From the NCBI GenBank assembly GCA_011911785.1, contig GCA_011911785.1_4084.1: a stretch of 64,000 nt of DNA; one strand, given 5' to 3'. Below, piece by piece: positions 36,974-64,000 of this stretch (positions are counted from its first letter, which is position 1; each line of letters opens with the position of its first letter). The notes under the pieces were generated by a model. That model did no database searches, was not told the origin of the DNA, and saw only the letters and a program-made list of their open reading frames with translations. The translations under genes and the position numbers were made by a program. This DNA is from a phage.

Positions 36974-37593
36974 TGAAACAACGTTGTGTAGTATGGGATT
37001 GTGATGAAGTGCTATTGGACCACATTGGTGGTCTATATAATTTTGTTAAAGAACATTATGATATTCATCCAGAAACACCATATCCAGAAAAATATGATTT
37101 GTGTCAGTGGTTGGGTGGAATTACTCAACCTGAAGTTCAAGAGATTCTAAAACACTTCAACCATCGTTCTTATGAGTTTGGTCTACTTGACCCAGTAGAA
37201 CATAACACGGTTGGAATTATGCAAGAATTACGTGATAAGTTCCCATATGATAAATTTGTAGTACTGACTAAATCTGGTACATTCGGTCACGGGGAAGTTC
37301 TCCGTAAGGTGAATCTCATTAATGTATTTGGTGAAGGTATTTTTGATGATATCATTATCATTGAAATGTATGAATCCAAAAAATCAGCACTAATGAAATT
37401 AAAAGCTCAATATGACGTTAAATTTTTGATTGACGATTATATTAAAAATATAGAAACGGCTATAGAGTTGGATATACCTGCTGTTATGATGTGTGCGTGT
37501 CATAACCATGAATACAAGCATAACAACGGCTTTGATTATGTTAATAATTGGAGCGAACTTCGTCTAAAAATTTACGAACTAATGAAAAAATAA
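36973..37593 (+). CDS. HAD-superfamily phosphatase, probable 5'(3')-deoxyribonucleotidase
   Basis: HAD motif I VVWDCDEVLLD, motif II VVLTKS, motif III Lys, motif IV FLIDDY; TAATG stop-start overlap with the clamp-loader gene. Confidence 0.5.
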   Translation: MKQRCVVWDCDEVLLDHIGGLYNFVKEHYDIHPETPYPEKYDLCQWLGGITQPEVQEILKHFNHRSYEFGLLDPVEHNTVGIMQELRDKFPYDKFVVLTKSGTFGHGEVLRKVNLINVFGEGIFDDIIIIEMYESKKSALMKLKAQYDVKFLIDDYIKNIETAIELDIPAVMMCACHNHEYKHNNGFDYVNNWSELRLKIYELMKK

Positions 37594-37598
37594 CAATA

Positions 37599-37627
37599 GG
37601 GGAACTTGATTCCCCTTTCATTGTTTT
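37599..37627 (+). terminator. intrinsic terminator
   Basis: GGGGAA-CTTGA-TTCCCC hairpin followed by TTTCATTGTTTT. Confidence 0.55.
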
Positions 37628-42175: not shown

Positions 42176-42212
42176 TTGACATATAAATGTGCCCATTGTA
42201 TAATGGGCACAT
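42176..42212 (+). promoter_or_regulatory. consensus sigma70 promoter with -10 at centre of a palindrome
   Basis: TTGACA at 42176-81, TATAAT at 42199-204; palindrome ATGTGCCCATT-GTAT-AATGGGCACAT (42187-42212). Confidence 0.6.
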
Positions 42213-49522: not shown

Positions 49523-49633
49523 TTATGCCAGTAATGGCTAACATATTATTATGTTATTTTTCCTCCCTTCTATAATAAAATTAATTTATTATATTTTCCA
49601 TTTCTTATTGTACATTTTATATCTTTTCGTACT

Positions 49634-49656
49634 GCCCCTCCCAGGGGCATTTTTTA
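49634..49656 (+). terminator. intrinsic terminator-like hairpin in intergenic region
   Basis: GCCCCT-CCC-AGGGGC followed by ATTTTTTAT; lies 15 nt upstream of the next ATG. Confidence 0.5.
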
Positions 49657-52141: not shown

Positions 52142-52560
52142 ACCCAAGAGATTGTTTTGATTTGTTAAAGGGAATGCCTATAGATTCACTAGTACCTGAT
52201 AATAGGTTTGAGCACAATCTTGATTTTCATGGTGAAAATTACAATGTATATATAAGCTACAGTGATGATGAGAGTGAAGAACTAACATTTGTGTTCATTT
52301 ATAATGTTTTTGAAGGTGATAAGTTGTTGGATGTTGAAATTGCATCATATACTGTCACAAATCAATACGTTATCGAAGATGAACTTCGCAACAAATTTGA
52401 TATAACACTGTACAGTACTGAAGAAGAGTTGTTTCAGTTAAGTACTATCAGTGATGTGTGCACAACCGTCGAAGAGTTAGCAGACGTTAAGAAAATCATT
52501 GACACTGTGTACAACAAGATATACAATACATTCCATATTGAGAAACAATTGAAAGGGTAA
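52138..52560 (+). CDS. EE-x-FQ-x-SL motif family protein (member 7)
   Basis: TEEELFQLSTISDV motif; ATGA overlap. Confidence 0.55.
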   Translation: MNPRDCFDLLKGMPIDSLVPDNRFEHNLDFHGENYNVYISYSDDESEELTFVFIYNVFEGDKLLDVEIASYTVTNQYVIEDELRNKFDITLYSTEEELFQLSTISDVCTTVEELADVKKIIDTVYNKIYNTFHIEKQLKG

Positions 52561-52901: not shown

Positions 52902-53153
52902 ATGAGTGAACATAGTGCAGTGCTAAAAAAGATTTTAAATGATCTGGGTAGTGAAATTGAAGTTTCAGACGAAGAATATGAATTTTGGAAAAAGGATTTT
53001 GAACAACTGTCCGAGAGTGATAAAGTGTTCAATATGATTGGTGTTGTCAGTCAGTACTTACTCGGTGGTGGTCGTGCTAGTGCTTCAATCCTTGCATCGG
53101 CAATCATCTGTACTGCCCGATGGTGTCAAGAAAAAAGTATTGACGATTTCTAA
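52902..53153 (+). CDS. hypothetical protein (83 aa)
   Basis: ATG 52902 in frame with ORF-track 52863-53153; a 25-codon ORF (52832-52909) with GAGGAA RBS precedes and overlaps it. Confidence 0.4.
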   Translation: MSEHSAVLKKILNDLGSEIEVSDEEYEFWKKDFEQLSESDKVFNMIGVVSQYLLGGGRASASILASAIICTARWCQEKSIDDF

Positions 53154-53211
53154 ATTAGGAGATATAATGTTTGTATCAGAGAGAAAGAATGTATAAGGAA
53201 TTATATTTTGC

Positions 53212-53240
53212 TTGACAATGGAGCAATAATATTATACAAT
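53212..53240 (+). promoter_or_regulatory. sigma70-like promoter (TTGACA-N17-TACAAT)
   Basis: TTGACA at 53212-17 and TACAAT at 53235-40; no ORF of 60 aa or more follows before the terminator. Confidence 0.5.
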
Positions 53241-53246
53241 TAATCA

Positions 53247-53428
53247 ATCTTATACAACGAGGAAACTCCAATTGAAATATGTAATACTCCTTATTCCAGT
53301 GGGGTCATTCCGTGAAATTCTACCTACTGATGTACTGGATGGTCTTAAAAAGAGAAATCCACATAAGTTTTAAATAGTATTAAAAAGGACAATACTGGGC
53401 GAATATTCGTCCAGTATTTTATTTTATA
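53247..53428 (+). ncRNA. candidate small non-coding RNA or structured leader (promoter-to-terminator unit without ORF)
   Basis: About 180-nt segment between promoter 53212-53240 and terminator 53391-53428, containing only tiny ORFs. Confidence 0.3.
53391..53428 (+). terminator. intrinsic terminator
   Basis: AATACTGGGCGAAT/ATTCGTCCAGTATT long hairpin followed by TTATTTT. Confidence 0.65.
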
Positions 53429-53439
53429 AAGGATTATAG

Positions 53440-54300
53440 ATGGAACCGATACGTGTACTATCTTTGTTCAATGGGATGAGTGTAGGATATATTGCATTAC
53501 AAAATGCTGGTATAGCAGTTGATAAGTACTACTCATCTGAAATTGACAAATTTGCTATAGCTGAATCCCAGGCTAACTTTCCTGATATCATCCAATTGGG
53601 TGATGTAACCAAATGGAAGGAATGGGATATCGAATGGGACAAGATAGATCTACTGATGGGGGGTTTCCCTTGCCAAGCATGGTCAGTGGCGGGTAAACAA
53701 GGTGGATTAACTGATATCCGTGGTCAACTATTTCTGGTTATGGTTGATATATTCAATCATATTAAAAGTTTAAATCCTAACTTGAAATTCTTATTCGAGA
53801 ATGTTAAGATGAAGGAAGATTTCAAGGAATATATCAATGGTATATTGCAACTAACCCCAGTACTGATAAACTCCCAGCATTACACGCCTCACTTCAGGCA
53901 ACGTTACTACTGGTACAGTACTGATAAGTTATTCATACCACCTGCAATATCCAAAGCCCCAAAGCTTCAAGATATACTTGATGATGGTTGGTACACAGAC
54001 AGAACCGCTTCGTACTGTATTGATGCCAATTACTTCAAGGGTGGAGATCCGAATCAGTACTTCAATAAGTCAAGAAGACAAATCGTTTTCAAAGACCCTG
54101 ATATCAACAGGAACTTCCTGATTGAGAAGGGTAAACGAAATGTGGACTATCGACATTTGACAGTGCAAGAGTGTTGCATTTTACAGGGAGTTGATGTAAA
54201 CTATTTCAAAGTGTCAAGTAACACACAAGCGTACAAAATGCTTGGTAATGGCTGGACAGCACCTGTTATAGAACATTTACTTCGTGATATATTCTTTTAA
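53440..54300 (+). CDS. DNA (cytosine-5)-methyltransferase
   Basis: Motif I LSLFNGMSVG, motif IV catalytic GFPCQAWSVAG, motif VI FLFENVKMK, C-terminal LGNGWTAPV; 286 aa. Confidence 0.85.
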   Translation: MEPIRVLSLFNGMSVGYIALQNAGIAVDKYYSSEIDKFAIAESQANFPDIIQLGDVTKWKEWDIEWDKIDLLMGGFPCQAWSVAGKQGGLTDIRGQLFLVMVDIFNHIKSLNPNLKFLFENVKMKEDFKEYINGILQLTPVLINSQHYTPHFRQRYYWYSTDKLFIPPAISKAPKLQDILDDGWYTDRTASYCIDANYFKGGDPNQYFNKSRRQIVFKDPDINRNFLIEKGKRNVDYRHLTVQECCILQGVDVNYFKVSSNTQAYKMLGNGWTAPVIEHLLRDIFF

Positions 54301-54315
54301 CCATTAGAGGCACAA

Positions 54316-55700
<1,385 letters not shown>

Positions 55701-56302: not shown

Positions 56303-56473
56303 ATGAGTCTGAGTGAATCCTGGAAACAGTTCAAAGAAGAGATTGGTTATCGTGGTGTATCGATTGAACCAATCAATCGTACTGAAAGCATTAAGGCCAG
56401 TACTAACGGTACTACCTATGACCGATATGACCCACGATACGGGTTACATGAAGAAGTCAAAAAAGAAGATTGA
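56303..56473 (+). CDS. small ORF (56 aa)
   Basis: AAGGGG RBS upstream of ATG; ends just before terminator 56482-56511; below ORF-track cutoff. Confidence 0.45.
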   Translation: MSLSESWKQFKEEIGYRGVSIEPINRTESIKASTNGTTYDRYDPRYGLHEEVKKED

Positions 56474-56481
56474 CAATATAT

Positions 56482-56511
56482 CGAGAGTGTGTGATAATAC
56501 TCTCGTCTTTT
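56482..56511 (+). terminator. intrinsic terminator
   Basis: CGAGAGT-(10 nt)-ACTCTCG hairpin followed by TCTTTT. Confidence 0.6.
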
Positions 56512-60352: not shown

Positions 60353-60360
60353 AATATATT

Positions 60361-60390
60361 ACCCAGTACTTAGATACTGGGTATTTTTTT
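60361..60390 (+). terminator. intrinsic terminator
   Basis: ACCCAGTA-(6 nt)-TACTGGGT hairpin followed by ATTTTTTT. Confidence 0.7.

Positions 60391-63464: not shown

Positions 63465-64000
<536 letters not shown>

Follow-up and report, generated by a model that had tools for sequence, protein, structure and literature searches.

A probable moron-type expression cassette inserted ahead of the cytosine methyltransferase gene of an Asteriusvirus-like jumbo phage

The stretch of phage DNA analyzed here (64,000 nt, referred to as the window) carries, immediately ahead of a C5-cytosine DNA methyltransferase gene, a small promoter-to-terminator unit whose best reading is that of an ordinary moron-type insertion, and not of a demonstrated small RNA or riboswitch. 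We judge it highly probable that this unit was inserted as an autonomous cassette, and read it as a self-contained early expression unit that probably codes for a 33-residue ORFan peptide. The features on which this reading is built are as follows, in order along the window, with the basis of each call in brackets (SD, Shine-Dalgarno).

53140-53168, + strand: P1, resident candidate promoter TTGACG-17-TATAAT, overlapping the end of the gp90 homologue (11/12 match; -10 box present in relatives)
53192-53205, + strand: left copy of a 14-nt imperfect direct repeat, TATAAGGAATTATA, which resembles the methyltransferase SD box of relatives (repeat search, alignment)
53206-53438, + strand: lineage-specific inserted segment of ~233 nt, consisting of one repeat copy and the intervening DNA (8-phage alignment)
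53212-53240, + strand: P2, candidate cassette promoter TTGACA-17-TACAAT (11/12 sigma-70 match; identical in A4 and the Logan contig)
53259-53263, + strand: Shine-Dalgarno-like GAGGA (sequence; 9 nt separate its GAGG core from the TTG)
53272-53373, + strand: 33-codon ORF with TTG start and TAA stop, MKYVILLIPVGSFREILPTDVLDGLKKRNPHKF; an ORFan and candidate micro-protein (ORF with SD, codon usage)
53391-53428, + strand: predicted intrinsic terminator, 12-bp stem AATACTGGGCGA / TCGTCCAGTATT with ATAT loop, then TTATTTTATA (folding; identical in A4 and the Logan contig)
53425-53438, + strand: right copy of the direct repeat, TATAAAGGATTATA, the working SD box of the methyltransferase (repeat search, alignment)
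53440-54300, + strand: C5-cytosine DNA methyltransferase gene, 286 aa (Pfam PF00145; annotation in relatives)

A lineage-specific insert in a closely packed region

The window belongs to an Asteriusvirus-like E. coli jumbo phage which shares 90-98% identity over this region with Escherichia phage A4, an Asteriusvirus and 355-kb jumbo myovirus; 121Q, PBECO4 and similar phages are its more distant kin, and one contig of the Logan assembly (ERR7425836_418, locus L008) matches the window with 99.6% identity across 6.9 kb. Coding sequence is closely packed, with 91 of the 98 ORFs of at least 50 aa on the + strand and a median gap of 26 nt between genes. The initial annotation of the window, made from the sequence alone, had called the intergenic gap ahead of the methyltransferase unusually long, and this is borne out: at 286 nt (53154-53439) it ranks in the top three by length of ~97 gaps, whose median is 26 nt, and of the two gaps that exceed it one in fact contains a 114-aa ORF. 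The longest gap without a convincing ORF, at 36974-37547 (574 nt), holds only a 49-codon GTG ORF without an SD; it has no Rfam or tRNA match, and a terminator-like hairpin on the - strand (37598-37616) lies just past it. A search of the whole window against Rfam (Rfam 15) at gathering thresholds returned one tRNA only, and the sole RNA gene detected is that of tRNA-Ser (anticodon TGA, 63777-63866), ahead of which lies a promoter-like site at 63739-63766.

Upstream of the gap, the gene that stops at 53153 is a homologue of 121Q gp90 (PHROG 27090, unknown function). Downstream, the product of the methyltransferase gene matches Pfam PF00145 with E = 4.5e-36, and its orthologues in relatives are annotated as DNA cytosine methyltransferase. 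The A4 orthologue (L001 3141-5039) is 632 aa long as against 286 aa in the window, its catalytic PCQ motif (window 53673) being the site of an in-frame insertion of 1,036 nt that is absent from the gene of the window. Matches of this insertion to the Pfam Hint/intein-splicing and LAGLIDADG domains identify it as an intein that contains a homing endonuclease. The methyltransferase genes of UE-S1 and JNE01 are likewise ~1 kb longer.

Comparison of the junction between these two genes shows that the intervening DNA is polymorphic. Although the gp90 homologue is present in 43 phage records, the sequence of the 286-nt gap was found by blastn (distant setting) in A4 only, and the carriers of the insert comprise the window phage, A4 and the near-identical Logan contig. 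Junctions were inspected in six relatives (121Q, UE-S1, Ecwhy_1, JNE01, Turkey5 and EJP2) within an alignment of 8 phages. The spacing between the gp90 homologue and the methyltransferase gene is ~52 nt in the first five of these relatives and 18 nt in EJP2, compared with 286 nt in the window and in A4. The relatives' junction begins with the -10 box of P1, from which a short spacer leads to the SD box AAAAAGGATTTTAT, followed by the methyltransferase ATG. The window and A4 have ~233 extra nucleotides between the SD-like TATAAGGAATTATA and the functional SD TATAAAGGATTATA, so that the insert is bounded by a 14-nt imperfect direct repeat whose copies are spaced 233 nt. Matches to the 14-mer with at most 2 mismatches number 4 in the whole window on both strands (128 kb), and chance is an unlikely source of another copy at a distance of only 233 nt (~0.5%, by a post hoc estimate). 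The spacer at 53169-53191, and indeed the whole stretch 53169-53205, is dissimilar to the relatives, and the left edge of the foreign DNA is therefore uncertain and could reach the -10 box of P1.

As for the origin of the insert, its DNA had no match in E. coli complete genomes or in PLSDB plasmids. It occupies one place only in the A4 genome, and elsewhere in the window, where both paralogues and complementary targets were sought, matches were of 10-16 nt only, which is the level of chance. Scans for a degenerate codon pattern for PTDVLDGLKK and for the exact terminator core gave 0 matches in IMG/VR, JGI metagenomes and GTDB genomes, and the junctions reached in IMG/VR through the gp90 homologue were those of 121Q itself and of one contig with a different gene downstream. 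The G+C content of the insert (~31%, vs. 0.30-0.40 in the flanks) makes its composition like that of its surroundings. The possibility that the insert is specially conserved was considered and rejected, its identity to A4 being 98.6% vs. 98.4% for the 3.4 kb upstream.

Promoters and terminator

The TTGACA-N17-TACAAT promoter that had been called at 53212-53240 is confirmed as a sequence match, agreeing with the consensus at 11 of 12 positions, and transcription from it would start at ~53247. This class of promoter exceeds chance in the window: when at least 11/12 positions are required to fit the sigma-70 consensus, the + (coding) strand has 24 sites and the - strand has 1, while ~2.3 per strand are expected from shuffled sequence. 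Judged by these matches, the phage clearly appears to use early promoters of host type in large numbers, in many cases with a promoter for each gene around this region, and the excess on the + strand suggests early transcription units arranged nearly gene by gene. Many of the promoters in the window sit within the 3' end of the preceding gene (e.g., 52499-52527, 54608-54636 and 54661-54689).

P1, a second near-consensus promoter 72 nt upstream of P2, had been overlooked in the initial annotation. Its -10 box, TATAAT, is kept in 121Q, UE-S1, Ecwhy_1, JNE01 and Turkey5 in the alignment of 8 phages, and in relatives without the insert P1 is predicted to drive the methyltransferase directly. An origin of P2 by local duplication of P1 was rejected, as the similarity of the two is confined to the hexamers. 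The P1 transcript would also contain two tiny ORFs, one at 53189-53215 (ATG, 8 codons, after GAGAGAAAG) and one at 53208-53243 (TTG, 11 codons, 8 nt past the AGGA of the left repeat), which overlap the -35 and -10 boxes of P2 and may be relics of a translation start region that predates the insertion.

At the other end of the unit, the strong terminator previously called at 53391-53428 also stands as a prediction, with hairpin and T-run both present. The hairpin (53391-53418; 12 bp, 5 G-C pairs and a 4-nt loop) has a folding energy of -16.8 kcal/mol and z = -6.45 vs. shuffles, none of the 200 shuffles folding as well, and it forms in both the MFE and the centroid folds. From these features we infer that the promoter and the terminator are active. 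The hairpin ends 21 nt ahead of the methyltransferase ATG, and because this interval contains no promoter, transcripts of the methyltransferase, whether from P1, P2 or further upstream, must cross the cassette terminator. Methyltransferase expression is thus probably damped compared with phages without the insert. We treat any such effect (damping or insulation, either of them probable) as a consequence of the insertion and not as its purpose. The earlier proposal that the unit controls read-through into the methyltransferase gene therefore survives in part, since the anatomy of the unit must affect read-through, while a dedicated regulatory leader is without positive support.

Coding potential of the unit

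The space between promoter and terminator had been described as lacking an ORF, with only tiny ORFs of up to 13 codons. This description holds for ATG starts alone, and even among these the longest ORF has 15 codons; once TTG is admitted, the SD-preceded 33-codon ORF (53272-53373) fills the interval. An SD followed by an ORF of at least 33 codons within 144 nt, the interval between the inferred transcription start and the terminator, was found in 0.9% of dinucleotide shuffles and in 0.5% of antisense windows of equal size. Codon usage was scored as log-odds with 78 long genes from the window as training set; the ORF reaches 0.40 bit/codon, compared with 0.54 +/- 0.22 for real genes and -0.02 +/- 0.21 for stop-free antisense ORFs of 30-45 codons, of which 2% reach 0.40. 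The frame is uninterrupted in all three variants (window, A4 and the Logan contig), with no stops and no frameshifts.

Other observations are less favorable to coding. TTG starts are rare in the window (88 ATG, 5 GTG and 1 TTG, by a heuristic start assignment), and the single TTG so assigned is doubtful because it overlaps the tRNA gene. The ORF was called neither by the annotators of A4 nor by the gene caller of the Logan contig. Four differences separate the window from A4, all of them at codons 5-14 of the ORF, and they divide into 3 non-synonymous changes (I>M, L>I and R>H, all conservative) and 1 synonymous (n = 4), compared with 34 synonymous and 13 non-synonymous in the neighboring genes. 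This is the pattern of little protein-level constraint, though n = 4, and the insert sequences known are three and very similar, too few for covariation or dN/dS. At codon 5 (window 53286) the window has ATA where both A4 and the Logan contig have ATG; lost from the window variant is thus an in-frame ATG with the potential to act as an alternative, SD-less start for a 29-aa product.

Searches with the 33-aa peptide are consistent with an ORFan. With tblastn against phages (E <= 10) only A4 was recovered, with no likeness to part of a larger phage protein, and no homologues were found in PHROGs, in Pfam or by phmmer against 1.8 billion protein representatives; an exact-sequence gene look-up of the ORF found nothing on record. 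Taking the evidence on both sides together, we regard it as evenly balanced whether the payload of the unit is a translated micro-protein.

Alternative readings of the transcript

The initial annotation had taken the interval for a small RNA gene or a regulatory leader. Of this the self-contained promoter-terminator unit remains, and neither of the two specific readings is positively supported. A covariance search against Rfam over 53170-53440 found nothing even at E <= 10, and shuffled sequences are as structured as the 139-nt transcript body (z = +0.06). Of 43 related phage records, 42 lack the segment ahead of the methyltransferase orthologue, and it is therefore not a control element conserved with this gene. 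The predicted fold of the RNA moreover differs in A4, and a structured RNA was rejected as a positive claim on account of this difference and of the body's z-score. A type I toxin-antitoxin system was likewise rejected, since 53100-53500 contains no promoter in antisense direction and hydrophobic residues of the peptide number only ~12. No complementarity of the insert to E. coli genomes was found at blastn sensitivity, and complementarity to the window is at chance level. Manual inspection revealed no evident antiterminator pairing, the alternatives being of 5-6 bp only. A literature search for Asteriusvirus transcriptomics found nothing usable.

Three rival explanations of the unit can be set against a translated cassette. 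Hfq-binding sRNAs share a generic 3' module, made up of an A/U-rich stretch, the terminator hairpin and a U-tail. A module of this type is visible in the sequence, where the A/U-rich AAAUAGUAUUAAAAAGGACA directly precedes the terminator hairpin and a U-rich tail comes after it, and together with the discrete promoter-terminator unit, the mostly non-synonymous substitutions in the ORF, its TTG start and its absence from existing annotation, this module argues for a non-coding, trans-acting sRNA of ~180 nt running from P2 to the terminator, possibly of Hfq type, with the ORF either fortuitous or part of a dual-function RNA. Such an sRNA is nonetheless unlikely, because an SD with a space-filling ORF (~1%) and gene-like codon usage (~2%) would both have to be coincidence, and because there is no Rfam match, no excess structure in the body, no fold kept in A4 and no extended complementarity to the window or, at blastn sensitivity, to E. 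coli genomes. Quite unlikely, in our estimation, is the related proposal of a regulatory RNA that is mobile and self-expressed, acting in trans as an sRNA or, in a dual function, also encoding the 33-aa peptide, and whose insertion has in addition rewired the methyltransferase to read-through control. The same codon-usage and SD evidence, with the intact frame in all three variants, also weighs against an inert recombination scar, that is, a real promoter and terminator around a functionless payload such as the remnant of a larger, lost ORFan. The insert is known from one shallow lineage only, the substitution pattern of the ORF looks neutral, the collections searched hold no homologues and the window variant has lost the codon-5 ATG of A4 and the Logan contig, all of which are as a scar would have them, but the ORF is unlike a fragment of any larger phage protein at the tblastn threshold given above, and we give the scar a minor chance only.

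An upstream ORF (uORF) followed by a terminator ahead of a gene is the classical attenuator layout. A cis-acting leader or attenuator, in which methyltransferase expression would be conditional on regulated read-through, possibly coupled to translation of the 33-codon uORF, is consistent with the closeness of the terminator to the promoterless start of the methyltransferase gene, with P1 and P2 transcripts that would both cross the uORF and then the terminator, and with the 0 substitutions vs. A4 in the 184 nt of promoters, SD and terminator, where ~3 were expected. We nevertheless consider such a leader very unlikely. The element is missing from the orthologous locus of nearly all related records, it matches no riboswitch or leader family, and no helix is seen to compete with the terminator, which is present in both types of predicted fold. 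The uORF stop is 17 nt ahead of the hairpin, so that a terminating ribosome would not occlude the latter. Finally, other terminators in the window also just precede the start of the next gene (e.g., 49633-49649 and 60360-60383), and a terminator directly before a gene is therefore a generic layout for this genome.

Discussion

The account that we prefer begins with a gain of ~233 bp in the common ancestor of the window phage and Escherichia phage A4, which came to lie downstream of the resident early promoter P1 and upstream of the SD box that serves the C5-cytosine methyltransferase gene. With the cassette would have come its own near-consensus sigma-70 early promoter P2, a GAGGA ribosome-binding site, the 33-codon TTG ORF and an intrinsic terminator, from which host RNA polymerase would make a ~180-nt transcript (~53247 to ~53425) early in infection. 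This transcript would most likely be a monocistronic mRNA for the 33-residue ORFan peptide, which, by analogy with other early phage micro-proteins, may be a host-directed accessory factor. With respect to mechanism, the 14-nt direct repeat of the SD box suggests short-homology recombination, and we infer that integration occurred through short homology at the SD box, possibly by way of a circular intermediate comparable to the PeSL mini-circles of T4-type phages; a circular intermediate integrating at the SD box would leave exactly the direct repeat observed. Transcription of the methyltransferase, from P1, P2 or beyond, would now pass the cassette terminator, and its expression would probably be damped as a result. 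Taken as a whole, the account of a moron-type cassette that was acquired, is self-expressed and has its 33-codon ORF translated seems to us about an even bet.

Phage morons were reportedly introduced by Juhala, Hendrix et al. in 2000. The unit resembles a moron in two respects: it sits between two genes that are adjacent (18-52 nt apart) in six related phages, and, at the level of sequence, it has a putative promoter upstream and a putative intrinsic terminator downstream of a single small ORFan. The definition, as quoted in a later account, is of extra DNA between genes that are adjacent in related phages, with its own promoter, a single protein-coding region and a factor-independent terminator, and with a composition that usually differs from that of the adjacent genes (PMC4378225). 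Unlike many classical morons, the unit has no distinct composition (G+C ~0.31 vs. 0.30-0.40 in the flanks), this being a usual and non-obligatory criterion. It also differs from morons in its host, which is a lytic jumbo phage and not a lambdoid prophage, in its orientation, which is that of the surrounding genes, and in its payload, which is exceptionally small (33 codons with a TTG start, the coding being putative). Whereas moron accretion has been described as independent of flanking homology (PMC2839356), a short direct repeat bounds the cassette.

A second point of comparison is provided by the PeSL + ORFan cassettes of T4-type phages (Arbiol et al., 2010, PMC2839356; Comeau et al., 2014, PMC4122927), whose composite motif, ~100 bp long, unites a sigma-70-like promoter with a stem-loop and is found many times over in one genome (PMC2839356, PMC4122927), and for which recombination via short conserved regulatory sequences, possibly with mini-circles, has been proposed (PMC2839356). 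As in those cassettes, a sigma-70-like early promoter and a terminator stem-loop bracket a tiny ORFan in a region dense in early promoters, the ORFan is differentially present between close relatives, and the flanking direct repeat is as expected from the mini-circle model. Unlike in a PeSL, the stem-loop (53391-53418) follows the ORF, at a distance of 150 nt from the promoter (53212-53240); the unit forms no repeated family, its matches elsewhere in the window being at most 12-16 nt; the repeat is an SD box and not a promoter or stem-loop motif; and the host phage is an Asteriusvirus and not of T4 type. The unit would thus appear to work like a PeSL + ORFan cassette without being a PeSL. Elsewhere on the + strand of the window, two near-consensus promoters, at 42176-42212 (TTGACA-17-TATAAT, hairpin ATGTGCCCATTGTATAATGGGCACAT) and 56470-56505 (TTGACA-17-GATAAT, hairpin CGAGAGTGTGTGATAATACTCTCG), each have a G+C-rich hairpin around the -10 box and a T-rich tail, and correspond to the PeSL subclass of T4-type phages in which the stem-loop overlaps the -10, here in an Asteriusvirus-like genome.

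Phage and prophage sRNAs and uORF attenuators share with the unit a transcript of ~180 nt with an intrinsic terminator, and a uORF and terminator before a gene; unlike them, the unit shows no family match, excess structure, antiterminator or conservation ahead of the orthologous genes.

To specialists the finding will be unsurprising, as ORFans bracketed by promoter and terminator are the expected currency of phage hyperplastic regions. It nevertheless represents a very small and clean case of modular gene gain in a jumbo phage, in which a putatively self-expressing unit of 233 bp occupies a junction that dozens of relatives keep short. Should the 33-residue peptide indeed be produced, an unannotated early micro-protein, absent from the A4 record and from the Logan gene calls, would be added to Asteriusvirus genomes. 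Moreover, with what is predicted to be a strong terminator now positioned before the DNA methyltransferase gene, the carriers of the insert would constitute a natural experiment on the need of phages for anti-restriction methylation.
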